Assembly (NCBI GenBank): GCA_900299145.1
Contig: OMIN01000098.1
Location: 6,081-70,080, forward strand
From: Betaproteobacteria bacterium
GTDB taxonomy: Bacteria; Pseudomonadota; Gammaproteobacteria; Burkholderiales; SG8-41
Reading direction: 5' to 3'
Length of the DNA stretch: 64,000 nucleotides
Positions within the stretch are counted from its first letter, which is position 1, and every line of letters begins with the position of its first letter. Shown here one piece after another: positions 6,590-60,131 of the stretch. Made by a program: the position numbers and the translations under genes. The notes beneath the pieces are model-generated. The model worked only from the letters and a program-made list of their open reading frames with translations. It searched no databases and was not told the origin of the DNA.

Positions 6590-6601
6590 CAGCAGTGCGT
6601 C

Positions 6602-6631
6602 TAAAAATATCCATTAAAACAAATAGTTACG
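6602..6631 (+). repeat. AT-rich dispersed element copy
   Basis: TAAAAATATCCATTAAAACAAATAGTTACG, intergenic, ~50 nt upstream of the Bug gene start at 6684. Confidence 0.9.
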
Positions 6632-6683
6632 ATTGAACAGCATTGTAAATGCCATGGCGGTTGTTACCTCAGTCGAGGCCTAC

Positions 6684-10907: not shown

Positions 10908-10942
10908 GAAAATATTATATCGAATAAAAACAAACACTTACG
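10908..10942 (+). repeat. AT-rich dispersed element copy
   Basis: GAAAATATTATATCGAATAAAAACAAACACTTACG, located in the 675-bp non-coding gap. Confidence 0.85.
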
Positions 10943-13556: not shown

Positions 13557-13934
13557 ATGCCCAATCCCGACGATCTGAAATATCACGCTGAACACACCTG
13601 GATTAAAGCGGAGCCCGGCGGCACGTACCTCGTGGGCATTACCGGTCACGCGCAAGAGCAATTGGGCGACGTGGTTTATGTGCAGCAACCGGACATTGGC
13701 GCAACCATCAAGCAGGGTGAGCCGTGCGGCGTGATCGAGTCGGTTAAAACCGCCGCCGATGTGCACGCGCCGGCCTCCGGCGTGGTGGTAGCGGTGAACG
13801 CGGCGCTTGCGGATGCGCCGGAAACGGTCAACAGCGATCCCTACGGCGCGTGGCTGTTTCGCATCACCTTGAGCGACGCGGCGGAGCTGGCGGCGCTGAT
13901 GGATGCGGCAGCCTATGAAAAAGCGCTTGGTTAA
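13557..13934 (+). CDS. gcvH: glycine cleavage system H protein (lipoyl carrier)
   Basis: ESVKTAADVHAP lipoyl-lysine motif. No gcvT or gcvP is adjacent. Confidence 0.9.
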   Translation: MPNPDDLKYHAEHTWIKAEPGGTYLVGITGHAQEQLGDVVYVQQPDIGATIKQGEPCGVIESVKTAADVHAPASGVVVAVNAALADAPETVNSDPYGAWLFRITLSDAAELAALMDAAAYEKALG

Positions 13935-13960
13935 AATAGTCAATAAAAACAGATAGTTAT
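13931..13960 (+). repeat. AT-rich dispersed element copy
   Basis: TTAAAATAGTCAATAAAAACAGATAGTTAT. It starts on the gcvH stop codon and ends 23 nt before the dgkA start. Confidence 0.9.
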
Positions 13961-16006: not shown

Positions 16007-16036
16007 GTAACTATTTGTTTTTATTAGATTTTTTAA
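16007..16036 (-). repeat. AT-rich dispersed element copy
   Basis: Minus-strand reading is TTAAAAAATCTAATAAAAACAAATAGTTAC. Located between the kinase and acyltransferase genes. Confidence 0.9.
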
Positions 16037-16851
16037 CACCGGCTTTTCATTACCTGCCGTTGACCGCGCCCACGCCTCGCCGCCCGCCTGCCGCGCCTCC
16101 ACACACGCCGCGCGTGGTTCGCGTCTGGCGCATTACGCGTGTGCTTACGCACCTCGCCCAGGCGGCGGTGGTGGCGGGCTTGGGTTATCCACTGATGACG
16201 CCGGCGCGCCGCCGCCTCGCGCTGCAACGCTGGTCAGCGAAGCTGCTGCGGCTGCTGGCGGCAAATCTTACCGTGCATGGCACGCCGCCCCGCGAGGGCG
16301 ACACCTATCTCCTCGCGGCGAATCACGTGTCGTGGCTGGACATTTTCGTTATTAACGCAGCAGCGCCCACCCGCTTTGTCGCCAAGTCGGAGATTCGCGG
16401 CTGGCCGCTGATCGGTTGGTTGTGCGTGAAAGCTGAAACGCTTTTTATCGAACGCGACCGCCGGCGAGATCTCGCTAGGCTGGATGATGTCATTGCCACG
16501 GCGCTTAACGCTGGCGCTGGTATGGGGGTGTTTCTCGAAGGTACCACCACCGACGGCCACGAGGTGCTGCCGTTTCACAGCTCGCTGCTGCGTCCGGCGC
16601 AACAGGCGGCGGCAAATATTGTGCCGGTAGCGATCCAGTATCGCCGCAGCGACGGCTCAATCTGTGTCGAAGCCGCCTTTGACGGCGACAAAACCCTGCT
16701 CGACACCATCCGCCTCATGCTCACGCAGCATGAAATTCACACGGCTGTGCATTTTCTGCCGCCAGTGGACGGGCAGGGCGTGCATCGCAAAGTGCTGGCG
16801 CGGCAAACGCGCGAGGTGATTGTGCGGACGCTGTATCCGGAAAAGGCTTAG
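16015..16851 (+). CDS. lysophospholipid (1-acyl-sn-glycerol-3-phosphate) acyltransferase family protein
   Basis: NHVSWLDI (HX4D) and FLEGTTT motifs. The start codon is uncertain: the TTG at 16015 lies inside the AT-rich element. Confidence 0.8.
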   Translation: MFLLDFLTPAFHYLPLTAPTPRRPPAAPPHTPRVVRVWRITRVLTHLAQAAVVAGLGYPLMTPARRRLALQRWSAKLLRLLAANLTVHGTPPREGDTYLLAANHVSWLDIFVINAAAPTRFVAKSEIRGWPLIGWLCVKAETLFIERDRRRDLARLDDVIATALNAGAGMGVFLEGTTTDGHEVLPFHSSLLRPAQQAAANIVPVAIQYRRSDGSICVEAAFDGDKTLLDTIRLMLTQHEIHTAVHFLPPVDGQGVHRKVLARQTREVIVRTLYPEKA

Positions 16852-21458: not shown

Positions 21459-21490
21459 ATAAAAAATAATGCATTAAAACAAATAGTTAT
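21459..21490 (+). repeat. AT-rich dispersed element copy
   Basis: ATAAAAAATAATGCATTAAAACAAATAGTTAT. It ends 15 nt before the GTG start at 21505. Confidence 0.9.
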
Positions 21491-25669: not shown

Positions 25670-25801
25670 TATTTTGAAAGATACTATACTCCCGCGCATC
25701 CATCGTTAAGGCACGCAATTGCACGCGACCCGTTGCATGCAACCCACCGGCATCGCTGGTGCGTTTCGCACAGCGCTAAACAATTTCCAAACTTCTTCCC
25801 C

Positions 25802-27320: not shown

Positions 27321-27695
27321 CTGCGCATTGGCCGCGAGCGCATTATTTTTGTCTTCACGACGGCATCGGGTGTGGCCACCTGCCTACGGGGATTCGCCGC
27401 CGGACTGCCGTCGGCGGTGGTCTTCGCCCTCATGTGCGTGCACTACGATTTGATGCTGGGTGACTCCGCTGCACTGACCGCCGGCGCCATTGGCTCGGCG
27501 CATGCCGATCAACACGGTGCGATGATGGTTGTGTATTCTTTTATTGGTTTCAGTGCCGCGATGGTGGCGCCGCTGGTGTTCGGCACGGTGCCCGATATCG
27601 CCGGCGGCAACCGCAGCACGCTGGCTTGGTTACTGGCTTACGTCAGCATCGGCGTGTTTGGCGCGGCTGCGCCGATGGTTCAAGCACTATATTAA
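27321..27695 (+). pseudogene. duplicated 3' fragment of the MFS transporter gene
   Basis: LRIGRERIIFVFTTASG...AYVSIGVFGAAAP parallels residues LRFGRERIIFVFMTASG...AYVSIGIFGVFAP of the intact gene (24429..25664). By eye, nt identity is roughly 80%. Confidence 0.8.
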
Positions 27696-27721
27696 AAAAT
27701 CCAATAAAAACAAATAGTTAT
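27691..27721 (+). repeat. AT-rich dispersed element copy
   Basis: ATTAAAAAATCCAATAAAAACAAATAGTTAT. It carries the stop codons of both convergent flanking reading frames. Confidence 0.9.
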
Positions 27722-30492: not shown

Positions 30493-32109
30493 CTACATGC
30501 GAAACACGCCAAATCGCGTCGGCTCAATGGGCGCGTGGGCAGCCGCCGCCAAGCCAAGCGCGAGCATGCGGCGCGTGTCCTGCGGCGCGATGATGCCGTC
30601 GTCCCACAGCCGCGCGGTGGCGTAGTAGGCGCTGGACTGGCGTGCGTATTGGTCGAGGATTGGCTGCTTAAACACGGCTTCTTCCTCGGCGCTCCATGTA
30701 GTTACACCGGCCCCCGAGTTTTCGAGCGCGTCGCGTTTTACTTGCGCCAGCACCCCGGCGGCCTGTTCGCCGCCCATCACTGAAATGCGAGCGTTGGGCC
30801 AGCTCCATAAAAAGCGCGGGCTGAAGGCGCGGCCGCACATGCCGTAGTTGCCCGCGCCAAAACTGCCGCCGACGATGACGGTAAATTTCGGCACATTGGC
30901 ACACGCCACCGCCGTCACCATTTTTGCGCCGTCTTTGGCGATGCCGCCGGTTTCGGCCTTTGCGCCGACCATGAAGCCGGTGATGTTCTGCAAAAACACC
31001 AGCGGAATGCCGCGCTGGCAACACAGCTCGACAAAGTGTGCGCCTTTCACCGCCGATTCTGAAAACAGAATGCCGTTGTTGGCGACAATGCCCACCGGCC
31101 AGCCGTCAATGCGCGCAAAGCCGGTGACCAGCGTTGCGCCGTAGCGCGCCTTGAATTCGTCGAACTCGGAACCATCCACCACGCGCGCGATGATTTCGCG
31201 CATGTCGAACATCGCGCGCGGATTCACTGGCACAACGCCGTCGAGCTCGGCGGCATCGAGCAGCGGCTCGCAAGCGGCTTCGCGGCTAATATATAAGTAT
31301 CTGTTTTTATTGATGTTTTTAATGGCGTTTCGCACAAGCTGCAAGGCGTGCGCATCGTTGTCGGCCATGTGATCGGCGACACCCGACAGGCGCGTGTGCA
31401 CGTCCGCGCCACCGAGCGCCTCACTGGTGACCACTTCGCCGGTGGCCGCTTTTACCAGCGGCGGGCCGGCAAGAAAAATCGTTCCCTGATTTTTGACGAT
31501 GATGGCTTCATCACTCATCGCGGGCACATACGCGCCGCCAGCGGTGCACGAGCCCATCACACACGCGATTTGTGCAATGCCCGCGGCCGACATGCGCGCC
31601 TGATTGTAGAAACTGCGGCCGAAGTGCTCGCGGTCCGGAAACACCTCGTCCTGACTCGGCAAATGAGCGCCACCGGAATCGACCAGATAAATGCAAGGTA
31701 AATGATTTTCGTGCGCCACTTCCTGCGCACGCAATTGCTTTTTCACCGTGAGCGGAAAAAACGTGCCGCCCTTCACCGTGGCGTCATTGGCGATGATGAC
31801 GCACGCCGTGCCGCTGACGGTGCCGACACCGGTGATAATGCCCGCAGACGGCACCGGCTCGCCGTAGACCTCGTGCGCGGCGAGCGGCGACAGTTCCAGA
31901 AACGGCGTGCCAGCATCGAGCAAGCCCGCAACACGCTCGCGCGGCAGCATTTTGCCGCGTGATATGTGTCGCGCGCGCGCGGCTTCACCGCCGCCTTGCA
32001 TCGTGTTGGCAGTGATCTGTTCCAGCTGCGCAATGCGTTCACGCATGGCGTCACGCGCGGCGGAGAAATCCGCGCCGGCGGTCTTGAGTTTGCTTTTGAT
32101 GACGGGCAT
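30493..32109 (-). CDS. liuB: methylcrotonyl-CoA carboxylase carboxyltransferase (beta) subunit
   Basis: Collinear along its whole length with LiuB/MccB as I recall it (e.g. [55 protein letters not shown]). Confidence 0.95.
31293..31322 (-). repeat. AT-rich dispersed element copy inside liuB coding sequence
   Basis: Minus-strand reading is TTAAAAACATCAATAAAAACAGATACTTAT. It encodes ...[12 protein letters not shown]... in frame. Confidence 0.9.
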
Positions 32110-32140: not shown

Positions 32141-32644
32141 TCAGTTCTTCGCCAGTTCGGCTTCGTACAGGGCGAGCATGTTGGCGTCGAAGCACGCAAA
32201 AATGATCTTTTCAAAATCGTCGGCGGCCGAACGGCACTCGCGTACAGCGATGGCTACCGCCTCGGCCAGCGGATAGCTATACACACCGCAACTAATTGCA
32301 GGATAAGCTATTGTTTTGATTACATTATTTTTAGCCAACGCGAGCGTTGAGCGATAACACGAAGCCAGCAATTCCGCTTCGCCTGCATGCCCGCCGTGCC
32401 ACACCGGGCCAGGCGTGTGAATGACAAACTTCGCCGGCAAGCGGTAGCCGCGCGTGATTTTTGCCTGCCCGGTTTTGCAGCCGTTCAACGTGCGGCATTC
32501 GGCCAGCAGTTGCGGCCCCGCCGCGCGATGAATCGCGCCGTCGACCCCGCCGCCACCCAGGAGCGATGTGTTGGCGGCATTGACGATGGCGTCGACGTTT
32601 AGGGTGACGATATTGGTTTGCAGGGCGAGCAGTTCAGCAGGCAT
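32141..32644 (-). CDS. macro domain protein (O-acetyl-ADP-ribose deacetylase, YmdB-like)
   Basis: [26 protein letters not shown] and [11 protein letters not shown] motifs. Confidence 0.9.
32303..32334 (-). repeat. AT-rich dispersed element copy inside the macro-domain gene
   Basis: Minus-strand reading is CTAAAAATAATGTAATCAAAACAATAGCTTAT. It shares AAAAATAATG plus the core with the copy at 21459 and encodes [10 protein letters not shown]. Confidence 0.8.
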
Positions 32645-37699: not shown

Positions 37700-38854
37700 C
37701 TATTGGCTACCTGCAAGTAATTCCCGCCCGATCAACCACCGCCGAATCTCCGAAGTCCCCGCGCCAATTTCATACAACTTCGCATCCCGCAGCAACCGCC
37801 CCGCTGGCGAATCGTTCATATAGCCCATGCCGCCTAGGCACTGGATGGTTTGCAGCGCGATTTCGGTTGCGCGTTCGGCGGCATACAGAATCGCGCCCGC
37901 CGCGTCGTGGCGGGTGATGTTGCCGGTGTCGCACGCCTGTGCCACGGCATACACATACGCGCGGCAGGCATTCGCCGTGGTGTGCATGTCGGCGAGTTTG
38001 CCCTGCATCAACTGAAACTCGCCGATGGGCTGGCCGAATTGTTTGCGCTCGCGCACGTACGGCAGCGTGATGTCGAGGCACGCCTGCATGATGCCGAGCG
38101 GCCCGCCGGCGAGCACCGCGCGCTCGTAATCGAGGCCGCTCATCAGCACGTTTACACCCTTGCCCACGCCGCCGAGCACATTTTCAACCGGCACTTCGCA
38201 ATCCGTGAACACCAGTTCGCTGGTGTTGGAGCCGCGCATGCCGAGCTTGTCGAGCTTCGGGGAAGCGCTGAAACCTCTGAACGATTTTTCGATGATGAAG
38301 GCGGTGATTCCGCGCGAGCCAGTGTGAATGTCGGTCTTGGCGTAAACCACCAGCGTGTCGGCATCCGGGCCGTTGGTGATCCACATTTTTGTGCCGTTCA
38401 GTACGTAGCGGTCGCCTTTCAGATCGGCGCGCAGCTGCATGCTCACCACGTCCGAACCCGCGCCCGCTTCGCTCATCGCCAGCGCGCCGACGTGTGCGCC
38501 GGAAATGAGTTTCGGCAGGTAACGGCTCTTTTGCGTGCCGTTGCCGTTGCGGTGGATCTGGTTCACGCACAGGTTCGAATGCGCGCCGTACGACAGACCC
38601 ACTGACGCCGAGGCGCGGCTGATTTCTTCCATCGCGATGACGTGTGCGAGGTAACCCATGCCTGCGCCACCGTAGGCGTCCTCGACGGTGATGCCGAGCA
38701 GGCCGAGGTCGCCGAGCTTCGGCCACAGGTCGCGTGGAAAGGAGTTATCGCAGTCTATTGCTGCGGCGCGTGGGGTGATTTGTTGGCGTGAAAAAGCCGC
38801 GACACTGTCGCGCAGCATCGCCAGTTCTTCGCTGAACGGAAACAGAGTATTCAC
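37700..38854 (-). CDS. liuA: isovaleryl-CoA dehydrogenase
   Basis: Collinear with LiuA/IVD (AMLRDSV..., [25 protein letters not shown]). GTG start. Confidence 0.92.
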
Positions 38855-38883
38855 AAAAATAACAATAAAAACAGATATTTACG
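38853..38883 (+). repeat. AT-rich dispersed element copy
   Basis: ACAAAAATAACAATAAAAACAGATATTTACG. It abuts the minus-strand ivd start codon. The 3' flank is TATTTTCAAGG. Confidence 0.9.
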
Positions 38884-44227: not shown

Positions 44228-44254
44228 GTAACTATTTGTTTTTAAAGGATTATT
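44228..44254 (-). repeat. AT-rich dispersed element copy
   Basis: Minus-strand reading is AATAATCCTTTAAAAACAAATAGTTAC. It ends at the PCuAC start codon. Confidence 0.9.
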
Positions 44255-44728
44255 ATGAAAAGAATCACAGGAGGTTCCCTGCTCGCAGGCTGGCTGATGT
44301 TGGGCGCCGCACATGCGCAGAGTGTGGAGGTGAAAGACGCGTGGATACGCGGCACGGTGCCAGCACAAAAAGTCACCGGTGCGTTCATGGAAATCACCGG
44401 CAAGAGTTCGGTGCGGCTGGTGGGTGCGGCGAGTCCGGCGGCGGGCACGGTGGAAATTCACAATATGACCCTGACCAACGGCGTGATGAAAATGTTCGCG
44501 GTCGATGGGATAGACGTGCAGGCCGGCAAGACGCTCAAGCTCGCGCCCGGTGGCTATCACGTGATGCTGATCGGTTTGAAGCAGCAGATGAAACCCGGCG
44601 ACAAAGTGCCGCTGGATTTGCTGTTGGAGTCCGCCGACAAGAAGCGCGAAACGGTCAGTCTGCAGGTGGAGGTGCGCGACCTTACTACCAGCGCGGGCAG
44701 TGCGGGCAGCCGCGCCAGTCAGCACTAG
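44255..44728 (+). CDS. periplasmic copper chaperone PCu(A)C (DUF461)
   Basis: Signal peptide, then IHNMT...M and GGYHVML copper-ligand motifs. Confidence 0.88.
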   Translation: MKRITGGSLLAGWLMLGAAHAQSVEVKDAWIRGTVPAQKVTGAFMEITGKSSVRLVGAASPAAGTVEIHNMTLTNGVMKMFAVDGIDVQAGKTLKLAPGGYHVMLIGLKQQMKPGDKVPLDLLLESADKKRETVSLQVEVRDLTTSAGSAGSRASQH

Positions 44729-46885: not shown

Positions 46886-48096
46886 TGCGGCTGCTGTCAG
46901 TGCTGGGTTTGCTGCTGTGCGCCTGCGCGCACGCGCAGCACACCGGCCACGCGCAATCTTCGGGGCCGGCGCGGGTGGAGCTGGCCTCGTCGGCAACCTT
47001 CGATGCCCAGGGTGTGTTGTGGGCGGTACACAAGATCGGCGGCCATGTGATGCTGCGCCGCTCGGCTGATGCCGGAAAAAGCTGGTCGGCGCCCAAACCC
47101 GTCAACGCCGCGCCCGAAGGCATAGGCGCCGAGGGCGATGCGCGGCCGAAAATCGCGGCGGGCACGCGCGGTGAACTCTATGTCACGTGGACGAAGCCTC
47201 TGGCGAAACCGTATACCGGTGAGATCCGTTTCGCGCGTTCGCTGGATGGCGGCGCGAGTTTCAGTGTGCCAATAACGGTGCACGCCGACCGGCAGGAAAT
47301 CACCCATCGCTTCGACGCGCTGACGGTGACGCGCGACGGCAAGCTGTTTGTCGCGTGGATCGACAAGCGCGACATGGACGCTGCCGGTAAGGAGGGTAAG
47401 TATCGGGGCGCAGCGGTGTACTTCGCGGTGTCGGACGACCGCGGCGCGAGCTTTCGCGGTGACTACAAGCTTGCTGATTACAGTTGCGAGTGTTGCCGTA
47501 TCGGCCTGCTGCCGCGCGACGATGGCAGCGTGCTGGCGCTGTGGCGGCATGTGTTCGAGCCGAACGTGCGCGATCACGCGCTGGGCGTGATGTACGCTGA
47601 TGGCCGCGCGGGCACAGTGTGGCGCGCGACGTTTGATGAATGGGCTGTCGACATCTGCCCGCATCACGGCCCGTCACTCGCAGCGGATGAGCGCGGCCGA
47701 TTGCACGCGGTGTGGTTTACGCAAGGCGCCAAACGCAGTGGCGTGTTTTATGGCCGCTTACGTATGAACGGCCAGAGCGGTGAGCCGGGTGTCGATGGCT
47801 TGCGGCCCGTCGGCGACGACACGGCAGCGCACGCCGATGTAGCGGTTAGCGGTAGTACCGTGGTGGTGGCGTGGAAGGCGTTCGACGGCACGCGTTCGCG
47901 GCTGCGCGCGATGGTGTCCGCCGATGGTGGCAACACCTGGCGCGAGCGTGATTTGCGCACCACCAGCGGTGCTTCCGATCAGCCGCGCATGCTGCGGCAT
48001 GGCGCGCGCCTCTTCGCGTTCTGGCATACACAACTGGAGGGCTTTACAGTAACACCGGTAACACCCGTAACGCCCTTGACAACGGTGATGCCATGA
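46879..48096 (+). CDS. BNR/Asp-box repeat (sialidase-fold) protein
   Basis: Four Asp-boxes: SADAGKSW, SLDGGASF, SDDRGASF and SADGGNTW. Confidence 0.8.
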   Translation: MVMRLLSVLGLLLCACAHAQHTGHAQSSGPARVELASSATFDAQGVLWAVHKIGGHVMLRRSADAGKSWSAPKPVNAAPEGIGAEGDARPKIAAGTRGELYVTWTKPLAKPYTGEIRFARSLDGGASFSVPITVHADRQEITHRFDALTVTRDGKLFVAWIDKRDMDAAGKEGKYRGAAVYFAVSDDRGASFRGDYKLADYSCECCRIGLLPRDDGSVLALWRHVFEPNVRDHALGVMYADGRAGTVWRATFDEWAVDICPHHGPSLAADERGRLHAVWFTQGAKRSGVFYGRLRMNGQSGEPGVDGLRPVGDDTAAHADVAVSGSTVVVAWKAFDGTRSRLRAMVSADGGNTWRERDLRTTSGASDQPRMLRHGARLFAFWHTQLEGFTVTPVTPVTPLTTVMP

Positions 48097-48617
48097 ACCG
48101 CAGAAATTTCTTAATAAAAACAAATAGTTATATAACCATGGGCGCGGCGCTTGTACTGGCTTTGCCGGGCGATTGCGCGGCGGCCACGGCCGTTACCGGC
48201 GAGTTGTTGCCGTTCGATGCCAACAGTTTGGCTGCGCTGCGCAAGTCGCACGCGGGTAAACCTTTCGTATTGGCGTTCTGGTCGGTTTATTGCGAGCCGT
48301 GCCGCGACGAAATGGCGGAATGGGACGCGGTCAAGCGCAAGCACCCGGCGCTGGCGCTGGAACTCATTTCCACCGACGCGCCCGCCGACCGCGCGTTGAT
48401 CGATGCCTTTCTGAAAAAATATCCGCCGGGGCCGGTGCGCCAATGGGTGTTTGCCGATGCGGTGAGCGAGCGCGTCCGTTATGCCGTAGACAAATCGTGG
48501 CGCGGTGAACTGCCCAAGAGCTATTTCTTCGATGCCGCGCATCGCGTTGAAGTCAAAAGCGGCAAGGTGGATCGCGCGTGGGTCGACGGCTGGCTCCCGC
48601 GGCAAACGCCGCGTTAG
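48093..48617 (+). CDS. TlpA/redoxin family thiol-disulfide oxidoreductase
   Basis: WSVYCEPC (CxxC) in a thioredoxin fold, with an RRNFL twin-arginine-like signal. Confidence 0.85.
   Translation: MNRRNFLIKTNSYITMGAALVLALPGDCAAATAVTGELLPFDANSLAALRKSHAGKPFVLAFWSVYCEPCRDEMAEWDAVKRKHPALALELISTDAPADRALIDAFLKKYPPGPVRQWVFADAVSERVRYAVDKSWRGELPKSYFFDAAHRVEVKSGKVDRAWVDGWLPRQTPR
48103..48131 (+). repeat. AT-rich dispersed element copy
   Basis: GAAATTTCTTAATAAAAACAAATAGTTAT. It encodes part of the signal peptide MNRRNFLIKTNSYI of the next gene. Confidence 0.9.
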
Positions 48618-50412: not shown

Positions 50413-51942
50413 CTACATGTGATACGCCGTCTCGCCGTGGGAGTTGATATCGAGACCTTCGCGTTCCTCTTCTTCCGTCACGCGCAGTCCGCCCGCAACC
50501 AGGCCGGCAATCCAGAAAGCTACCGCTGCGACCACGGCTGTCCACACCACGGTGACGCCAACGGCTTGCGCCTGTATCCAGACTTGTGCACCGATGCTCT
50601 CAAAGCCGGGCTTCATTTCGAACCAGTTGTTGGGAAAGCCGGGGCCGCCCAGCGCCGGCGAATTGAACACGCCGGTCAGCAGTGCGCCGAGTATGCCGCC
50701 AACCGCGTGGACGCCGAAGACATCCAGTGAGTCGTCGACTTTCAGCATGCGTTTCAGGCCGTTCACGCCCCACAGGCAGACGATGCCCGCCACAGTGCCG
50801 ATCACGAATGCTCCGGCGACGCCCACATTGCCGGCCGCTGGGGTGATGGCCACCAGGCCCGCCACCGCACCCGACGCCGCCCCCAGCATTGAGGGTTTGC
50901 CCTTGAACATCCACTCGGCGAACGTCCATGACAGCACCGCGCACGCCGTGGCGAGGAAGGTGTTAAGGAAGGCGAGAGCAGCCGAGTTATTCGCTTCCAG
51001 CGCGGACCCGGCATTGAATCCGAACCAGCCCACCCACAGCATCGACGCGCCAATCATGGTCATGGTGAGGTTGTGCGGCTTCATCGCTTCGCGGCCGAAG
51101 CCAACCCGCTTGCCAACCATGTAGGCGCCGACCAATCCCGCTACGCCAGCGTTGATGTGTACCACGGTGCCGCCCGCGAAATCCAGCGCCCCCCACTGCC
51201 ACAGCAAGCCTGCGGTGCTGTTAAGTTTGTCGACCAGCTTGGCGTCTGTGTAGGCATCCGGGCCCGGCCAGAACCAGACCATGTGTGCGATCGGCAGATA
51301 GCTGAAAGTAAACCAGATCACCACGAAAATGAGCACTGCCGAGAACTTGATGCGCTCGGCGAAGGCGCCGAGGATCAGACAGCAGGTGATCGCGGCAAAC
51401 GTGCACTGGAAGGCGATGAACACCAGTTCCGGCAGCACCGTGCCCTTGCTGAAGGTGGCCGCAGTGGCGAAGTCGCCTTTTACCGCGTCGATCACCGCGC
51501 CTTTCAGAAATAGCCGGTCAAAGCCGCCGATGAAAGCGTTGCCCTCGGTGAAGGCGAGACTGTAGCCATAGACGCACCACAGTACGGTGATAAGTGAAAA
51601 GACGACGAACACCTGCATCAGCACCGACAGCATGTTCTTCGCGCGCACCATACCGCCGTAGAACAGCGCCAGCGCGGGGATGCTCATCATCAGTACCAGT
51701 GCGGTGGACATCAGCATCCAAGCGATATCGCCTTTGTTGGTGGTTGACTTGGCGGGGGCCGCAGCCGTTGCGGGCGCCGCTGGTGCTGTGGCAGGCGCGG
51801 CCGCTGGCGCAGGGGTGGCGGCGGGTGCTGCCGCAGCCGCAGGCTCCACGGCCTTTTCAGCGGGCTTGTCCTGAGCCTGCGCGCCGAAGCTTGCGCAGAA
51901 CAGGAAGGCCAGCGTGGATAACAAAATGCTCAGACGGTTCAT
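50413..51942 (-). CDS. amtB: ammonium transporter
   Basis: GGTVVHINAG and DDSLDVFGVHAVGG motifs. There is a signal peptide plus an unusual ~45-aa Ala/Pro-rich segment before TM1. Confidence 0.93.
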   Translation of the reverse strand: MNRLSILLSTLAFLFCASFGAQAQDKPAEKAVEPAAAAAPAATPAPAAAPATAPAAPATAAAPAKSTTNKGDIAWMLMSTALVLMMSIPALALFYGGMVRAKNMLSVLMQVFVVFSLITVLWCVYGYSLAFTEGNAFIGGFDRLFLKGAVIDAVKGDFATAATFSKGTVLPELVFIAFQCTFAAITCCLILGAFAERIKFSAVLIFVVIWFTFSYLPIAHMVWFWPGPDAYTDAKLVDKLNSTAGLLWQWGALDFAGGTVVHINAGVAGLVGAYMVGKRVGFGREAMKPHNLTMTMIGASMLWVGWFGFNAGSALEANNSAALAFLNTFLATACAVLSWTFAEWMFKGKPSMLGAASGAVAGLVAITPAAGNVGVAGAFVIGTVAGIVCLWGVNGLKRMLKVDDSLDVFGVHAVGGILGALLTGVFNSPALGGPGFPNNWFEMKPGFESIGAQVWIQAQAVGVTVVWTAVVAAVAFWIAGLVAGGLRVTEEEEREGLDINSHGETAYHM

Positions 51943-52030
51943 TGCGGTTCCCCTAAAATTTTCAACCATTGAAAACTGCTTTTAGATGAGAGGTTTGCCG
52001 GCATCGGTGGGCCCGATGCCAGCGGGTTTG

Positions 52031-53321
<1,291 letters not shown>

Positions 53322-53359
53322 GGTAGAGCCTCCCGTTAATTAAACTGCATTGACGTAAA

Positions 53360-53375
53360 AGCACATAGCGTGCCA
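53360..53375 (-). promoter_or_regulatory. sigma-54 (-24/-12) promoter candidate
   Basis: Minus strand reads TGGCAC-GCTAT-GTGCT (consensus TGGCAC-N5-TTGCW), ~40-55 nt upstream of the porin ATG. A GGAGG Shine-Dalgarno lies in between. Confidence 0.7.
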
Positions 53376-53377
53376 GT

Positions 53378-53407
53378 GAAAATATATCAATAAAATCATA
53401 TATTTAC
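53378..53407 (+). repeat. AT-rich dispersed element copy (variant with ATCA core)
   Basis: GAAAATATATCAATAAAATCATATATTTAC. Located between the sigma-54 promoter and the NtrC-like sites. Confidence 0.75.
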
Positions 53408-53431
53408 ATAAAAATTTGCTTGCGTGAAATG

Positions 53432-53446
53432 GCACTGTAACGGTGC
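53432..53446. promoter_or_regulatory. NtrC-like enhancer half-site pair
   Basis: GCACTGTAACGGTGC fits GCAC-N7-GTGC, as in TGCACC-N5-GGTGCA. Confidence 0.5.
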
Positions 53447-53463
53447 AGGCCCCCGTCATTAGC

Positions 53464-53478
53464 GCACTTTCGTGGTGC
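53464..53478. promoter_or_regulatory. NtrC-like enhancer half-site pair
   Basis: GCACTTTCGTGGTGC fits GCAC-N7-GTGC. Confidence 0.5.
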
Positions 53479-53557
53479 GTTTTTTGTGGCGCAAATTTCG
53501 CGCGGCGCACGGGCGCAAGCGGTTTGCTAGACTAACGATTGCGCTGGAGAAAGTGCC

Positions 53558-53797
53558 ATGAATAAACCTGCATTCGAAGAATTATTCAATAAAATCAATA
53601 ATTTATTGAAAAACACCCCGGCGGTCGACGTGGAAAAGAATTTGCGCGCGCTGTTATCGTCGACTTTTTCGCGATTGGATCTGGTGACGCGAGAGGAATT
53701 TGACGTGCAACGCGAAGTGCTGGTGCGCTCCCGCGAAAAAATTACCCAGCTTGAGGCGCGAATCTCCGAGCTGGAACGCGCGCAACGCGCCAACTGA
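53558..53797 (+). CDS. ubiK: ubiquinone biosynthesis accessory factor UbiK (YqiC/BMFP family)
   Basis: 79-aa coiled-coil protein with [16 protein letters not shown]...LEARISELE. Confidence 0.8.
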
Positions 53798-53801
53798 ACC
53801 G

Positions 53802-54443
53802 ATGTCCTTGGCCGTTTTGCACAGCCGCGCGCTGGCGGGTGTTGAGGCGCCGCCGGTGGATGTCGAGGTTCATCTGGCCAACGGCTTGCCGAGCTTCACC
53901 ATCGTTGGCTTGCCCGAAGCCGAGGTGAAGGAATCGAAAGACCGCGTGCGCGCGGCGTTGCAAAACGCGCGTTTCGAATTTCCCCTGCGGCGTATCACGG
54001 TGAATCTCGCGCCGGCCGATTTGCCCAAGGAATCGGGGCGGCTGGATTTGCCGATTGCATTGGGCATACTCGCCGCGTCAGGGCAGATTCCCGCCGACAA
54101 ACTCAGCGAATACGAATTCGCCGGCGAGCTCGCGCTGACCGGTGCGTTGCGCCCGATACGCGGCGCGCTCGCCATGACCCTGGGTGCGCTGAAAGATGGC
54201 CGCGCGTTTGTGCTGCCTCCCGACAACGCCGCCGAAGCCGCGCTGGTTGAAAACGCCACGGTCTACGCGGCGCCATCACTGCTGGCGGTGTGCGCGCATT
54301 TGCTGGGGCAGGCAAATTTGCCGTCTATCAAAGCGCACCGGCGATAACCGCGCAAAGTTACGCTGATCTGCTGGATGTCAAAGGCCAGGCTCATGCCAAG
54401 CGCGCGCTCGAAATCGCGGCAGCGGGAGGCCACAGCCTGTTGA
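53802..54443 (+). pseudogene. comM: comM/yifB (Mg-chelatase-like ATPase) 5' fragment, interrupted and frameshifted
   Basis: MSLAVLHSRALAGVEAPPVDVEV...ITVNLAPADLPKESGRLDLPIALGILAASG. The frame changes near 54310-54345 and then reads DLLDVKGQAHAKRALEIAAAGGHSLL up to the island junction. Confidence 0.85.
54431..54443. repeat. attL core (direct repeat)
   Basis: CACAGCCTGTTGA here versus CACAGTCTGTTGA at 60119. A 10-bp inverted repeat lies nearby (GAGACCAATA at 54457, TATTGGTCTC at 60103). Confidence 0.75.
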
Positions 54444-54504
54444 AGTTGTTTACGTGGAGACCAATAACAATTAATATGGCCCCCTTCACGTTGCTGGGGA
54501 CAGC

Positions 54505-56073
54505 ATGCCAAAGGCTTACAGCTATTTGCGGTTCTCAACGCCAGAGCAGCAGAAAGGGGATAGCTCGCGGCGACAAACCTCGCTGGCGAGGGAGTATGCG
54601 CAGAAACACAAGCTGGAACTGGATGAAAGCCTCACCTATCGGGACTTAGGCGTTTCAGCATTCCGCAACAAGAATGCGCGAGTAGGGCAGCTTGCTGAAT
54701 TTCTCCTAGCCGTTGAGAACGGAACAATCGCCAGCGGCAGCTATTTATTAATTGAAAGTCTCGACCGCCTAACGCGTGAAAAGATTGTCGCGGCGCAGAC
54801 ACTGTTTAATCGAATCATCATGGCGGGGATAGTCATTGTCACCCTCGCGGACAATAAGGTATATAGCCATGACAGTCTAAACGCAAACCCCGTTGATATG
54901 ATTCTGTCCCTGTTGGTTATGATGCGGGCCCACGAAGAAAGCGAAACAAAGGGCCGGAGGATTAAAGCAGCGTGGAAGCAAAAGCGAGTGATGGCAGACA
55001 CTCGGAAATTGACCAAGTTGTGCCCCGGCTGGCTGACGCTACGCGATGACCGCTCGCAATTTGATATTGTGAAAGAGCGTGCCGCAGTGGTAAAGCGCAT
55101 CTTCCGCATGACGCTGAAAGGCACCGGGAGGAAAACGATTGCGCGCACTCTCAATGAAGAAAAGATTCCGTCATTCAATGGGGCCGTATGGCATAGCAGT
55201 TACATCGCCAAGCTGCAAAGCAACCCGGCAACTATCGGGACATTTGTGCCGCACACCGAGGAGCACCAAGACGGTAAGACAATACGAACGCCCGCTGAGG
55301 CCATACCGAACTACTTCCCCCCAGTTATCACGAAGGACACGTTTGAACGTGTGCAGTCGCTACGGGGCGAGGCACGCAGCCCGCTACGGGGGCGGCACGC
55401 ATCCGGCATCATAAGTAATATTCTCGGGGGGCTGGGACGCTGCCCCACCTGTGGCGGCGCTGTGACTGTCACCAACAAGGGCGGCAGCAAGGGGACATGG
55501 CGATATTTCATTTGCACCAAGGCCAAGGCGGGGGCGGCTGACTGCCGTTATCGGACTATCCCGTATGGCGAAGTGGAGCGTGCCATCATCGCGGAGTTTG
55601 ACAGCATCGTTGCGGATTGCCCCGCACCAAACAGCGCAGCACGTGAGATAGAGACGAAACTGCGAGATGTGGGGGACAACATAGAGGCAACGAAAGACGC
55701 AATTGAAGAATTATTAAAAGCGATTGAGCGCGCGGGTAAAAGCCCCGCGACAGTAATGCAGCGCGTAAGCGACCACGAGGCCACAATAAAAGACCTTCAG
55801 GGCACAGAGAAGGCTCTATTAAAACAACTCGCAGCAGCGGCATCCAAGGGATTAGAGCAGAAACTAGAGCAGGCCCGAAAGGCCCTAGCGGCGGCACCCA
55901 TCAATAGACAGGCCGTAAATATAGCACTGCGACAACTCCTTACCAGCGTAGTGATAGACCCAGAAAGCGGCGAGCTTACGTTCCATTGGATGCATGGCGG
56001 GGAGAGCAGCTTTACTTATCGTTGGTTTAAACCTGTTGCACGGAAGGGCGCACGGCCACGGATAGCCACCTAG
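54505..56073 (+). CDS. large serine recombinase (integrase)
   Basis: YSYLRFSTPEQ catalytic-Ser resolvase domain, a recombinase domain, a Zn ribbon (CPTCGG...C) and a C-terminal coiled coil. 522 aa. Confidence 0.9.
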   Translation: MPKAYSYLRFSTPEQQKGDSSRRQTSLAREYAQKHKLELDESLTYRDLGVSAFRNKNARVGQLAEFLLAVENGTIASGSYLLIESLDRLTREKIVAAQTLFNRIIMAGIVIVTLADNKVYSHDSLNANPVDMILSLLVMMRAHEESETKGRRIKAAWKQKRVMADTRKLTKLCPGWLTLRDDRSQFDIVKERAAVVKRIFRMTLKGTGRKTIARTLNEEKIPSFNGAVWHSSYIAKLQSNPATIGTFVPHTEEHQDGKTIRTPAEAIPNYFPPVITKDTFERVQSLRGEARSPLRGRHASGIISNILGGLGRCPTCGGAVTVTNKGGSKGTWRYFICTKAKAGAADCRYRTIPYGEVERAIIAEFDSIVADCPAPNSAAREIETKLRDVGDNIEATKDAIEELLKAIERAGKSPATVMQRVSDHEATIKDLQGTEKALLKQLAAAASKGLEQKLEQARKALAAAPINRQAVNIALRQLLTSVVIDPESGELTFHWMHGGESSFTYRWFKPVARKGARPRIAT

Positions 56074-56258
56074 ATGCACACATAGGGCGTGAGGGCTGAC
56101 GCTGTGCCCAAATTTCTGCCAAATATTTCTTTGAGGGCATCCCATAAACTTCGCTTTTGGAATTTCCCCCCGTCTCAAATTTTACCTATTACAAACGAGC
56201 AAGAAAGCAACTTGCTTCGCGTTACACATGCTGTTCACACAGCGTGAGCGGGCCAGCA

Positions 56259-56525
56259 TCAGCGAGGCGCACGAACGGCAGAGCATTCGTAGCTCACGGT
56301 GCGGAGCTCTTTCCCATCCACCAGCCCTGCCACCTCGTATGGGTAGCAGAAATCAACTGTTCCGGTGAGCCGGTCAATCCGCACAACGCGATGGGAGTAT
56401 TCATGCATAGCAGTTGAAACCTCGTATCGCTGGCTTAGACCAATAAATACCAGCGCAGCGGAAAGCACCAAGCCCGCGACTATGACAGCGCGGCCCACCT
56501 TCGCCACATCGGATGCGGTGTTCAT
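56259..56525 (-). CDS. hypothetical small membrane protein
   Basis: 88-aa ORF with one clear TM helix (AVIVAGLVLSAALVFIGL). No family recognised. Confidence 0.4.
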   Translation of the reverse strand: MNTASDVAKVGRAVIVAGLVLSAALVFIGLSQRYEVSTAMHEYSHRVVRIDRLTGTVDFCYPYEVAGLVDGKELRTVSYECSAVRAPR

Positions 56526-56716
56526 GTTCAGGCCCCTTGTTGGTATCAGTCGGCACCGAGTCTAGCAGCGCACCACCCTGTTAGATGACGGTCGATTTCC
56601 AACAGTGCCTTATGCTGCCCGCACACCCTGTTAAGAAATTAGTGCTGTACATTACTAACGGTCTGTACTATTCTGGCAGCGTTTTCTGACACCCACACAA
56701 CATGGAGACGCACAAC

Positions 56717-57295
56717 ATGGCCACCTTTGGATACGGACGCGTTAGCACTACTGAGCAGAGCACCGAGAACCAGCGTATGGAGATTGAGCGTGCGGGCTAT
56801 AAACCTGAATACTGGTTTGCGGATGATGGTGTAAGTGGCGCGGTGCTTGCGGCGCAGCGCCCCGAATTCAAGGCCATGCTAGGCAAGATACGCAGCGGTG
56901 AGAACCTAGTGGTTACCAAGATAGACCGCCTTGGGCGCGACGCCATAGACATTCAGCAGACCGTGAAAAGTCTTAAGGGTGCCGGGGTGCGTGTGTTCGT
57001 GACACAGCTAGGGGCCACAGACCTAACGAGTTCAGCCGGGAAGATGCTACTAGCGATGCTGTCCGCCTTTGCGGAGATGGAGCGCGACCTGATTGTGGAA
57101 CGCACGAAGGCGGGACTGGCACGCGCTAAAGCAGAGGGCAAACAACTGGGACGCAAGCCGAAGACTACCGAGGCCCAGCGCGTGGTCATCCGTGCGGCAC
57201 TAGCCAGCGGCGAGACGGTAAGTGAGATGGCACGCCGCAGCGGACTGAGCAGAGCATCCGTTATCAGCATCCGGGGGGCGGCAAGCGCGCCTTAG
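56717..57295 (+). CDS. small serine recombinase (resolvase/invertase family)
   Basis: MATFGYGRVSTTEQ catalytic motif and a C-terminal HTH (GETVSEMARRSGLSRASV). Confidence 0.9.
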   Translation: MATFGYGRVSTTEQSTENQRMEIERAGYKPEYWFADDGVSGAVLAAQRPEFKAMLGKIRSGENLVVTKIDRLGRDAIDIQQTVKSLKGAGVRVFVTQLGATDLTSSAGKMLLAMLSAFAEMERDLIVERTKAGLARAKAEGKQLGRKPKTTEAQRVVIRAALASGETVSEMARRSGLSRASVISIRGAASAP

Positions 57296-57325
57296 CCACT
57301 GCGATACCACCACGGGGACACAGAG

Positions 57326-57346
57326 GGGGCCGGAATGGCCCCTTTT
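57326..57346 (+). terminator. intrinsic terminator-like hairpin after the resolvase gene
   Basis: GGGGCC-GGAAT-GGCCCC followed by TTTT. Confidence 0.55.
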
Positions 57347-57702
57347 CCATTTCTATCATTAGGGTGCGGGGCGTTGTGGGCCCCTAACCCTCACTCTTGC
57401 CCCTCTCCTCTCCGCTGGTAAGCGTCCGGCGATGCCCCAGCAGTGCCACCAGTGGGCCCCATGAGGGCATCAGTAAGTAACCCGCCGGGGCACAGCGATA
57501 GAACGCGACAGGGCGCGCCCCACGCGTTTGTGGCTACTGAACCCACCAACGCACTAGCCGGGACAGTCCGGACGCTATGGCGGGCCACGTGGGGCCACGG
57601 CGGGGCACTCACATGGGGCGGGGTGAATCACGCAGCAACTCAACCGAAGAAAGGGAATACGGCAGTGAATGAAGAAACGGCAGCGACCACAGGGAGAACG
57701 TC

Positions 57703-57921
57703 ATGAGCGGCACAGCAGAAAAGATGGTTTACAGGCAAGTGGCAATTCCGGTCAGTGCATTTGACTGGCTGAAGCACCAGCAGCGCACCCACGAGGCACA
57801 ACTGGGCTACTGCATAAGCAACAGTGAGGCCCTCGCACTGATTATCAGTGAGCACAAAAGATTAACCGTAGAAAGTGGAGCACATCAGAATGTCATTACT
57901 CACAGCAAAGGCCGCGCTTGA
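57703..57921 (+). CDS. hypothetical protein
   Basis: 72-aa ORF overlapping the start of the ParB-like gene. No family recognised. Confidence 0.35.
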   Translation: MSGTAEKMVYRQVAIPVSAFDWLKHQQRTHEAQLGYCISNSEALALIISEHKRLTVESGAHQNVITHSKGRA

Positions 57922-58714
57922 GGCACAGATTAAAGCAGGCACAGCGCCCGCTGTAGCACAGCCCCGCACGTTGCCACTAGACGCAATTGGGGAACTCCCA
58001 GAAGTATTTCAGCACCGGACGCCATGCGAGATTGACCAGAAGATGCATATCATTGAGTTAGCGCGGGTGCTGAAGGGCGGCAACTCTCTCGCTGAAATAG
58101 CTATCTTTTGGGATGGGAAGCGATGGGTATGTGTCGATGGGCACCACCGCCTTGCCGCCTATCGGGCAGTAAAGTGGGAAAGGGGCGTGCCGGTGAAAGT
58201 GTTTGTTGGCACTGTAGCCCAAGCCATGCTCCGGGCGGCAGGGAACACGCGCGACAGGTTGCCAATGCGCAAGGCAGAGAAGATGAATACCGCATGGCGG
58301 CTTGTCCTCGCTGGCGGTCTTACTAAGAAAGAGATTGTGGATGGTGCGGCAGCGTCGGATGGCATCGTCGGGCGCATGCGTCATGTTGCAAAGTCATTGT
58401 CACGCCGAGAGCCTGAGACAGACCTGAGCGGAATCACTTGGGAACAAGCGCGTAGGAAATTTGACGGGGAAGACAGCCGCACTCACGAAGATATGGAAAG
58501 ATGGGTGCATGAGCAGGCGAAGGCGACCGCTGATAAGCTCGTGAAGGCGCTAGGACGCCCCAAGCACTGGAACCGAGAGATACTTTTAGAGGCCCTAGAA
58601 ATATGCGACGTGAAACTGCCCGCCTTTGCCGCCGAACACTGGCGCAGACGCTGGGCCGATTTCGATGAAGACGCGGAGCAGCTTGCTGAGGGAGAGGAAA
58701 AAGACGATTTCTAA
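57875..58714 (+). CDS. ParB/Srx-like nuclease-domain protein
   Basis: WDGKRWVCVDGHHRLAAY matches the ParB N-terminal domain DGxHR motif. The start could instead be the ATG at 57890. Confidence 0.75.
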   Translation: MEHIRMSLLTAKAALEAQIKAGTAPAVAQPRTLPLDAIGELPEVFQHRTPCEIDQKMHIIELARVLKGGNSLAEIAIFWDGKRWVCVDGHHRLAAYRAVKWERGVPVKVFVGTVAQAMLRAAGNTRDRLPMRKAEKMNTAWRLVLAGGLTKKEIVDGAAASDGIVGRMRHVAKSLSRREPETDLSGITWEQARRKFDGEDSRTHEDMERWVHEQAKATADKLVKALGRPKHWNREILLEALEICDVKLPAFAAEHWRRRWADFDEDAEQLAEGEEKDDF

Positions 58715-58893
58715 CCGGGGCCACCAAGGGGAAGCCGCAAGGCACCAGCGCGGCCCCTTGGGGGTGCACAGCTAGACGGGGGTTTTTGCATATTCACCAG
58801 CCTATGCATTTGCATAGCCAGATGAGAGCCGTAGCCGGTTAAATGGCTGGGCATATCTGTTTTTTTGTTTTCGCTAATCGGCGCGCGTCCCCA

Positions 58894-59076
58894 CTAGGCA
58901 ACTAAGCGGTAAAGAAGCAAAACAACCAATCCAACAACCCAGAACCACGCGATGATTACAATGAACTTGGGCGGCGTATCGGCCACTGACCGCCCCGGCC
59001 AATCCCATAGCAATCTGTAAAGACCAAATAGAGCCATTGCGGCGATGCAGAGATTATAAAACGCCTGCTTATCCAT
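58894..59076 (-). CDS. hypothetical two-TM small protein
   Basis: 60-aa ORF with two hydrophobic helices. Weak support. Confidence 0.3.
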   Translation of the reverse strand: MDKQAFYNLCIAAMALFGLYRLLWDWPGRSVADTPPKFIVIIAWFWVVGLVVLLLYRLVA

Positions 59077-59555
59077 GAATTAACTCACCTCTCTTTATGC
59101 TGCAATACGCGCCCCTTCGCCAGACAATGGATGCGCACCTGCATTCAACCCGCCACGGCATTGTACAAAGCGACCTGAGTGTACTAATATCCGGCCCGCA
59201 CTACTAACAACACAACTAAAGGGGACACTTCATGTATCTACTTGGCCACGACGTTTTCATCTGCCGTAACATCGCTAAACCACTGCCCGGACATGCCGCA
59301 CACCCACGCCCGCTGCTGAGTATTGCGCGGGGATGGACAGAGCGCGATACGGAAATCATTGTGGGCCCGTGGGACGTGATAGTGAGCAAGTGCTACAGAG
59401 ATGGCACACCCCGGCAGAAACACAGCTAGGGCCACAGCGGGGCACCAGCGGGGCCATTCCGGGGCCACTGCTGGTGCCCCGGATGAATTCGTAAAGCCCC
59501 CGGATGTAATGGTTCTGGACTGTTGCCAGCCTGTGCGTCAAGTTAAAATACACAA

Positions 59556-60062
59556 ATGCGCGCAGCACTGACAACCCTTTTATTCCTCATCGCACCCGCT
59601 CAAGCCGCAACTATCAGCGGCAAGGTTATCAATGTGGCCGATGGCGACACTACTACAGTTCTCGACGTTGACCGCACGCAGCACCGTATTCGCATCGGTG
59701 GCATAGACGCGCCTGAAAGGAAGCAGCCTTTCGGTGACACAGCACGGCAGAGCATGGCGCGTATGGTGAGCGGTAAAGAAGTAGTTGCCGATTGCCACAA
59801 GGTAGACCGTTACGGTAGGCAGGTATGCAAGGTATTTGCGCAGCCCACTGATTGCCCAACGTGCGGCATGACGCTAGACGTGGGGCATGCCCAAATATTA
59901 GCGGGGATGGCTTGGTGGTATCGAGAATACGCGAAAGAACAGCCAGCGGAAGACCGTGTGCGTTACGAGGCAGCGGAGCAAGATGCCCAAGCGCGTAAGC
60001 TGGGGCTGTGGCGCGATGCGAACCCCGTTGCGCCGTGGGAATGGCGGCGTAGGGCAAAGTGA
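59556..60062 (+). CDS. secreted thermonuclease (staphylococcal nuclease homologue)
   Basis: Signal peptide, GDTTTVLD...IRIGGIDAPE, and a C-terminal ARKLGLW. Confidence 0.88.
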   Translation: MRAALTTLLFLIAPAQAATISGKVINVADGDTTTVLDVDRTQHRIRIGGIDAPERKQPFGDTARQSMARMVSGKEVVADCHKVDRYGRQVCKVFAQPTDCPTCGMTLDVGHAQILAGMAWWYREYAKEQPAEDRVRYEAAEQDAQARKLGLWRDANPVAPWEWRRRAK

Positions 60063-60118
60063 TACTCCTCCTCTTTTTGGCGGCGGCGCGGGTGCTTCGC
60101 GGTATTGGTCTCAGAAAG

Positions 60119-60131
60119 CACAGTCTGTTGA
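60119..60131. repeat. attR core (direct repeat)
   Basis: CACAGTCTGTTGA, identical at 12 of 13 positions to 54431-54443. Confidence 0.75.

Follow-up and report, generated by a model that had tools for sequence, protein, structure and literature searches.

Control region of the porin-glnK-amtB operon

The subject of this study is a short intergenic region, positions 53360 to 53479 of a 64-kb stretch of betaproteobacterial DNA (contig OMIN01000098.1, 64,000 nt analysed, hereafter the window), together with a dispersed AT-rich element of 31 nt that recurs throughout the window and resembles part of this region. On the minus strand, the region precedes an operon of three genes. The first one (52389..53321) encodes a TorF-family putative porin of 310 amino acids (TIGR02001, E = 4.3e-48; Pfam Gcw_chp in the same-species contigs). 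Its ATG is at 53321, and a Shine-Dalgarno sequence GGGAGG can be read from the sequence at 53329..53334 on the minus strand, where AACGGGAGG is kept in close relatives. Behind the porin gene follow, after 19 nt, glnK (52031..52369, minus strand; P-II protein of 112 amino acids, NF007946, E = 1.4e-55) and then amtB for the ammonium transporter (50413..51969, minus strand; TIGR00836, E = 2.3e-131), which is called with 509 or 518 amino acids in the same-species contigs. The divergent neighbor on the plus strand (53558..53797) is a ubiK-like gene of 79 amino acids (NF047835, E = 3.5e-20, below the family cut-off; Pfam BMFP).

The sigma-54 (-24/-12) promoter TGGCACgctatGTGCT lies at 53360..53375 on the minus strand and is the sole match to TGGCAC-N5-KTGCW in the window, where 0.2 would be expected. 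Read in the direction of transcription (53375-53360), the motif TGGCACGCTATGTGCT is found 54-39 nt upstream of the porin ATG. Compared to the consensus TGGCAC-N5-TTGCW, it shows a single departure, a G for the T before GC, and the spacing between the -24 and -12 parts is exact. Transcription is predicted to start near 53349.

Further upstream, two NtrC-type dyads are located side by side on the minus strand. The proximal one, TGCACCGTTACAGTGCC, occupies 53431..53447 with its center at 53439 (about -90), and the distal one, CGCACCACGAAAGTGCG, occupies 53463..53479 with its center at 53471 (about -122). They contain GCAC-N7-GTGC at 53432-53446 and 53464-53478, which are two of the five copies of this motif in the window, and both fit the 17-bp TGCACC-N5-GGTGCA as well as GC-N11-GC. 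The centers of the 17-mers are 32 bp apart, that is about three helical turns; at glnAp2, the NtrC sites are also 32 bp apart. In the literature, NtrC sites are described as GC-N11-GC, and Pseudomonas stutzeri has such a site in its glnK-amtB promoter (PMC8443478). In Herbaspirillum seropedicae, the nlmA-glnK-amtB operon depends on NtrC, and nitrogen limitation induces it (PMC3023670).

Between the proximal dyad and the promoter lies a spacer of 56 nt, whose promoter-proximal 30 nt are very AT-rich (53378-53407, plus strand, GAAAATATATCAATAAAATCATATATTTAC). Between the enhancer dyads and the -24 element, this block contains a core of the integration host factor (IHF) type, AATCATATATTTA (53394..53406, plus strand), with 8 of the 9 specified positions of the consensus WATCARNNNNTTR and equally 8 of 9 of WATCAANNNNTTR. 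By convention, the center of an IHF site is its first consensus nucleotide; native promoters use both orientations, and sites centered from -44 to -69 are functional (Huo et al., PMC2709558). Here, this W nucleotide is 53394, at about -45. On the 5' side of the core stands an A/T-rich arm, GAAAATA-TATCAATA, at the same arm-core spacing as in phage lambda's H' site. Arm and core together make up the full 31-nt site (53377..53407, plus strand).

Scans of 53250-53650 for other signals gave one chance-level match of sigma-70 promoter type on the plus strand (GTGAAA-17-TATATT) and one terminator-like hairpin, which is the distal NtrC dyad itself. The sigma-70 match was considered as a ubiK promoter and dropped as an unsupported, chance-level hit. 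An Rfam scan detected no RNA family anywhere in the 64-kb window.

Comparison of orthologous promoters

Taken singly, the motifs of this region are weak, and their significance comes from conservation in orthologous promoters. A scan of one genome per species yielded 37 loci encoding a relative of the porin (best 71% identical), all from uncultured Betaproteobacteria or Burkholderiales. An exact look-up of the porin protein gave no record; that of GlnK returned contigs of the same species (loci L038-L043 and L046, 99.9% identical) and of a sister species (L044, L045 and L047, about 80%).

Upstream of the porin of the orthologous TorF-porin/glnK/amtB operon, TGGCAY-N5-NTGCW is present in 32 of the 37 loci, and two of the five remaining loci have almost no upstream sequence. 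The sister-species loci also carry the sigma-54 motif. An alignment of 35 promoters showed four conserved blocks separated by unconserved sequence: GCACnnnnnTGGTGC at the distal dyad, with a fixed distance to the promoter, GCaTCAnnnnGGTGC at the proximal dyad, TAAnnnnTTGATT and TGGCACGnTCCGTGCT. Within the promoter, TGGCA and TGC are invariant. In the other species, the distal NtrC-type dyad begins 103-110 nt before TGGCAC and the proximal one 71-78 nt before it.

Regarding the IHF-type motif, 7 of 33 promoters have a perfect WATCARNNNNTTR in the 60 nt preceding TGGCAC, compared to 0.9% of shuffled sequences; allowing up to one mismatch raises this to 19 of 33 spacers, compared to 13% of shuffles. 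The best matches fall mostly (25 of 33) into two classes of position and orientation. In the reverse class the motif ends 17-18 nt before TGGCAC, and in the forward class it ends 5 nt before it; both classes place the W nucleotide in one and the same alignment column (113), 18-19 nt upstream of the T of TGGCAC and at about -45. The motif is reverse in some lineages and forward in others, and the column of its W stays constant. A U-turn-forming protein would need a bend center that stays in place whichever way the site is oriented. Several orthologous promoters (L017, L024, L035) carry at the IHF column the same TTGTTT variant as the dispersed family.

The closest view of the window's own site is given by its five nearest relatives (L001, L002, L044, L045 and L047), which align to it gap-free from the distal dyad to TGGCAC. 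All five hold a perfect YAANNNNTTGATW in reverse orientation, in the column where the window reads TAAATATATGATT. These perfect sites are TAAGTCATTGATT in L001, TAACTAATTGATT in L002, TAAGCCTTTGATT in L044 and L045, and CAACTATTTGATT in L047. Because there are neither gaps nor length differences, the window site can be regarded as an inherited ortholog and not as an inserted repeat. Judged from this alignment, the putative bending site of the window is an ancestral, slightly degenerate ortholog of canonical IHF-type sites.

The first-pass annotation of this DNA had proposed an enhancer-IHF-promoter architecture. Its coordinates for the sigma-54 motif, the two dyads and the AT-rich block were correct throughout, and the comparison strongly supports the architecture itself at the level of sequence, as promoter, both dyads and IHF-type motif are conserved at fixed spacing in the 35 aligned promoters.

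Altogether, 53360-53479 is probably a classical NtrC-IHF-sigma-54 control region of the minus-strand porin-glnK-amtB operon, in which the bending site is ancestral and the dispersed element represents the same type of site. By analogy with known promoters, it could work as follows. Under nitrogen limitation, phosphorylated NtrC would bind the dyads centered at about -122 and -90. An IHF-type bending protein would occupy the asymmetric site of about 31 bp near -45, consisting of the A/T-rich arm and the core AATCATATATTTA, and the resulting sharp bend would fold the short, stiff spacer. The NtrC oligomer would thereby contact the sigma-54 RNA polymerase in the closed complex at TGGCAC-N5-GTGCT, and ATP hydrolysis would open the promoter.

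The dispersed AT-rich element family

The members of the dispersed family are AT-rich islands in a window of 61% GC, with a consensus of roughly TTAAAAAWATC-AATAAAAACARATAGTTAY. A Hamming scan found 18 matches with at most 5 mismatches from a 19-mer consensus, compared to 0-1 in shuffled sequences, and the family amounts to about 16 copies in the 64-kb window, or roughly one every 3-4 kb. A 31-nt matrix was built from 14 copies. On this matrix, members score 35-53 bits (training members 35.2-52.8), and weaker copies were added at 333 and 34506. The promoter site scores 31.6 bits, below the range of the members; a match within the ubiK coding sequence (53576-53606), treated as a chance hit, reaches 32.6 bits. 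The promoter core AAATCATATATTTAC differs from the family core AAAACARATAGTTAY at 4 of 15 positions, and a search with the 30-mer of the promoter site, allowing up to 3 mismatches, found no match beyond the site itself. The initial assignment of the promoter block as an element copy has to be narrowed accordingly: the block, orthologous and gap-free, is not an insertion, and by its 31.6 bits it is only a marginal member of the family. In our interpretation, the promoter site would resemble the dispersed element because the element belongs to the same type of site in a full-length and near-optimal form, both being apparently built as an A-tract, 8 nt and a WAxCAR-N4-TTA core.

The layout of the family is an A-tract (A6), 8 nt and a 13-nt core AAACAAATAGTTA, giving the consensus AAAAAA-TCCAATAA-AAACAAATAGTTA. 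This is the layout of lambda H', AAAAAA-GCATTGCT-TATCAATTTGTTG, a string that was confirmed in the literature. The structural meaning of this arrangement was reportedly described by Rice et al. in 1996. A second matrix was trained solely on the sigma-54 spacer sites of other species, and 15 family copies (the copy at 333, minus strand, was left out) scored 18.6-29.4 bits on it, compared to about 0 for composition-matched shuffles; at most 0.8% of shuffles reached the score of each copy.

An exact 18-mer search in metagenomes gave at least 120 stretches. In 46 of the 120 contigs listed the GC content is at least 55%, and in those contigs the chance rate of an 18-mer match is by our own calculation about one per 1e12 nt. 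Among the matches listed, 4 of 45 independent family-type copies in these GC-rich contigs have a TGGCAY-N5-NTGC in the same orientation 41-52 nt downstream of the W (L067, L118, L148 and L164), with an expectation of 0.06 (P ~6e-7). From inspection of the translations by eye, the products of the genes downstream of these elements look like a response regulator, a glycyl-radical-enzyme-like protein and an NrtA-like binding protein. The element of L067 is on the reverse strand at index 3929, and its downstream gene looks like that of an NrtA-like nitrate-transporter binding protein.

Conservation between species was found for four sets of orthologous copies. In these, no change occurs in the A-tract, in AATAA, in AAACA or in TTA; the R position is A, G or T, and variation at N4 is found in three of the sets. 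Invariant and variable positions broadly follow WAxCAR-N4-TTR, in line with an IHF-type family. The earlier suggestion that the dispersed element could be bound by IHF or a similar protein gains support from the lambda H' geometry, the scores on the promoter-site matrix, the linkage to sigma-54 motifs and the conservation that spares N4; as judged by these features, IHF or a close relative is the leading candidate for the protein that would bind the family.

In the case of the copy directly upstream of dgkA (13930..13960, plus strand), which supplies the TAA stop of gcvH, the ortholog in L128 is 28/30 identical, compared to 73% identity of the coding DNA; the preceding gene differs in L128, which has an extra redoxin gene there. 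The copy at 38852..38882 (plus strand) lies in a divergent gap and adjoins the start of a gene for 384 amino acids (37700-38854, minus strand). From its length and the synteny with L168 and L169, this gene is presumed to encode an acyl-CoA dehydrogenase, and the orthologs of the copy are found between lactamase_B and acyl-CoA dehydrogenase genes in both loci. Two further conserved copies are located inside coding sequences. The first one, in the linker of mccB (31293..31323, minus strand), uses rare AT-rich codons, encodes IKNINKN.. and is conserved as DNA in L168-L171 (near 10787), with variation mainly at the N4 positions; the KNINKN segment is found in orthologs down to 75% identity. The second one, in a macro-domain gene (32303..32333, minus strand), likewise uses rare AT-rich codons and is conserved as DNA in L168 and L169 (at 9797). 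The orthologs of both genes have 75-89% protein identity, and the host genes have a GC content of 0.71-0.83 at third codon positions. At both places, it is apparently the DNA motif that shapes the protein. We also considered the mccB copy as a 30-nt insertion, the protein having 538 amino acids compared to 535 in most homologs, and rejected this; the difference of three residues is located elsewhere in the protein, near alignment columns 476-478.

The density of the family drops with phylogenetic distance. Per 10 kb it is 2.8 in the window, 2.4 in L169, 2.1 in L168, 0.9 in L170 and 0.5 in L171, and the loci of other species gave two family matches in 576 kb, both in L002. Among same-species contigs, the copies are identical and show no presence/absence polymorphism. 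The flanks of 16 copies contain no shared sequence, common hairpins, terminal inverted repeats or repetitive extragenic palindromic (REP) sequences. A nature as REP or bacterial interspersed mosaic element (BIME), or as miniature inverted-repeat transposable element, was ruled out on these grounds, the lack of shared flanks and hairpins and of terminal repeats. A literature search with the motif string of the family returned nothing relevant.

As a tentative and rather doubtful extension, the family could be a lineage-amplified, near-optimal IHF-type site that is selected at intervals of about 1-6 kb and written into coding sequence with rare codons where no gap is available, for which mccB and the macro-domain gene would be examples. 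If true, this would amount to a genome-wide code of architectural or insulating sites lacking REP palindromes, of which the glnK promoter site would be an ordinary ancestral relative.

The best copy of the family (52.8 bits) is ATTAAAAAATCCAATAAAAACAAATAGTTAT at 27691..27721 on the plus strand. A copy at 16007..16037 (minus strand, 50.6 bits) lies between a kinase gene and an OlsA-like gene, and another at 44228..44258 (minus strand) between a DUF2946 gene and an LpqE-like gene. The copy at 6600..6630 (plus strand) fills the 43-nt gap between two TctC paralogs, a TlpA-like gene has one at or within its 5' end (48101..48131, plus strand), and one of 38.5 bits lies at 10911..10941 (plus strand). 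On the family matrix, further copies were found at 333 and 19292 on the minus strand and at 21460, 23750, 25638 and 34506 on the plus strand.

Several side observations concern the placement of the copies. The TAA within the TTAAAA start of the element is often the stop codon of the preceding gene (at 13930, 23750, 27691 and others), and the same use was seen in the metagenome loci L052, L058, L115 and L153; the stop-to-stop open reading frame ends 4-6 nt inside the 31-mer. For the 17 element positions from 333 to 53407, three marginal ones included, the distance between neighbors is 1.0-6.3 kb; its coefficient of variation is 0.44, compared to 0.92 under uniform random placement that ignores the constraints of gene structure (P = 0.0003). 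The copy at 48101-48131 falls in the first codons of the TlpA-like open reading frame, which starts with an ATGA overlap (48093-48140) and whose translation MNRRNFLIKTNSYIT is twin-arginine-motif-like; an alternative start is at 48138 (the gene is called with 159 amino acids in L041 and 174 in L038). The 100-nt left flanks of two copies, 25538-25637 and 27591-27690, share 85% identity over 62 nt, possibly as paralogous gene ends duplicated along with the element. Elements also flank several of the TctC/Bug-family substrate-binding paralogs, of which at least four were identified by Pfam (2909-3886, 5600-6589, 6633-7664 and 8807-9793, the last on the minus strand); an open reading frame at 25733-26761 is tied to this family through tblastx similarity only. 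Several TctC/Bug-family paralogs are typical of Burkholderiales.

Beyond the operon, a 5.7-kb insertion (54444-60118) splits yifB/comM and carries a gene for a large serine recombinase (54505-56073). It has a lower GC content (0.56) and a strong positive AT skew, and is bounded by an imperfect 13-bp direct repeat, CACAG(C/T)CTGTTGA, at 54431-54443 and 60119-60131. The insertion is present in L039 and absent from the same-species loci L038, L040, L041 and L043, and by this presence and absence it can be described as a polymorphic integrated element.

Alternative explanations and known systems

Several points weigh against the interpretation as a whole. Regarding the promoter, the window core departs from the IHF consensus at the R position, where it has a T (ATCAT); a match with at most one mismatch is also obtained in 13% of shuffled AT-rich spacers; and among the positions of known IHF sites, a center near -45 falls at the end closest to the promoter. 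Regarding the dyads, the entire window shows no enrichment of GCAC-N7-GTGC (5 found, 3.9 expected), and the spacer between proximal NtrC site and promoter differs by 6-7 nt between two groups of orthologs, which is not a whole number of helical turns. The genes for IHF, NtrC and sigma-54 (RpoN) are absent from the 64-kb window. Regarding the family, many copies directly adjoin a stop codon, with the next start codon 2-25 nt away, a placement that a simple role in promoter architecture does not explain, and the copies keep more positions (TCAATA, ATAG) than E. coli IHF is known to read. These extra conserved positions, together with the lineage specificity of the family, make a different or additional, co-evolved and lineage-specific binder possible.

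The most plausible rival is still one that we regard as unlikely. Here, the sigma-54 and NtrC sites would be real, and the AT-rich block would serve not as an IHF site but as a curved or flexible spacer, as a UP-like element or as a site for another binder; an H-NS-like protein, Fis, Lrp, HU or a lineage-specific protein could act in this way and bind the dispersed family too. The imperfect window core with its comparable matches in shuffled spacers, the conservation of family positions outside the IHF consensus, and the near absence of the family from other relatives that do contain IHF speak for it. In addition, TCAATAAAAA resembles TCGATAAATT, which we take to be the nucleation motif of H-NS. 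However, the orthologs hold a perfect and asymmetric IHF consensus in the very same column, and a flip of orientation that keeps the center fits a U-turn bending protein whose footprint is pseudo-symmetric. Invariant and variable positions moreover follow WAxCAR-N4-TTR, and the geometry is that of lambda H'.

A second rival, to which we give little credence, would attribute the likeness between promoter site and family to a coincidence of AT-richness. The family would then be a selfish short repeat or a signal at the RNA level, such as an AU-rich leader or a processing site between genes, unrelated to IHF. That the promoter site scores on par with the chance match in ubiK speaks for this, as do the many copies in gaps of 43-55 nt, which often include the preceding TAA stop and lie 2-25 nt from the following start, and the lineage-specific density. 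Against it stand the occurrence of copies in both orientations between co-directional genes and the lack of terminal inverted repeats, REP palindromes and shared flanks. Copies are furthermore conserved at orthologous places across species, including coding sequences where rare codons are used. Also against this rival are the family-type copies that unrelated contigs carry where a sigma-54 promoter would have its IHF site, and the high scores of the family on a matrix derived from the promoter sites of other species.

Finally, that the dyads of a sigma-54-dependent promoter serve an enhancer-binding protein other than NtrC is very improbable: the dyads are tied to NtrC by sequence similarity only, with the ntrC gene outside the window, but they fit TGCACC-N5-GGTGCA and GC-N11-GC, share the 32-bp spacing of glnAp2, and precede glnK and amtB, genes that depend on NtrC in H. 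seropedicae and P. stutzeri.

As a probable NtrC-IHF-sigma-54 control region, the promoter is another, well-conserved example of a very well-known kind and ordinary by itself. Its value is twofold. Firstly, it gives a prediction on nitrogen regulation for uncultured Betaproteobacteria, organisms not yet grown. Secondly, it anchors a functional assignment by linking an abundant AT-rich motif to a specific candidate binding protein. If IHF does bind the family, this would provide a natural system to study what a high density of sharply defined IHF sites does, both at the borders of genes and within them.

Comparable promoters are E. coli glnHp2, those of Klebsiella nifH, nifU and nifJ, and Pseudomonas Pu, which likewise combine a -24/-12 promoter with enhancers about 90-130 nt upstream and, in the spacer, an IHF consensus, and whose native IHF sites occur in both orientations (PMC2709558). 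Unlike in these systems, the host is an uncultured betaproteobacterium, and the predicted site, with its center near -45, is at the promoter-proximal limit of what that study tested. The nlmA-glnK-amtB operon of H. seropedicae is also a betaproteobacterial operon of three genes with a gene for a membrane or periplasmic protein ahead of glnK-amtB (PMC3023670); NlmA and the TorF-family porin are likened by operon position, and the cited work describes no IHF site.

In the case of the family, a close parallel is H' in attP of phage lambda, a high-affinity IHF site with the same A6 tract, 8 nt and 13-nt core. Unlike H', the family core has an A for T at the third position (AAACAA compared to ATCAA), and the family sits at chromosomal gene boundaries and not at a recombination site. 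In E. coli, the RIB/RIP (BIME-1) elements are reportedly IHF sites in repeated extragenic elements at the 3' ends of transcription units, as Boccard and Prentki (1993) and Oppenheim et al. (1993) are said to have described. The family resembles them as a set of dispersed, repeated IHF-type sites, many of them just past gene ends, and differs in that it has neither REP palindromes nor a shared flank, that some copies are coding and that orthologous positions are conserved. Small mobile repeats with an IHF site are known as well, for example the Correia elements of Neisseria (PMC2229807). The family is similarly short, dispersed and intergenic with an IHF-type site; unlike Correia elements, it measures only about 31 nt and shows no terminal inverted repeats, target duplications or presence/absence polymorphism within the species.

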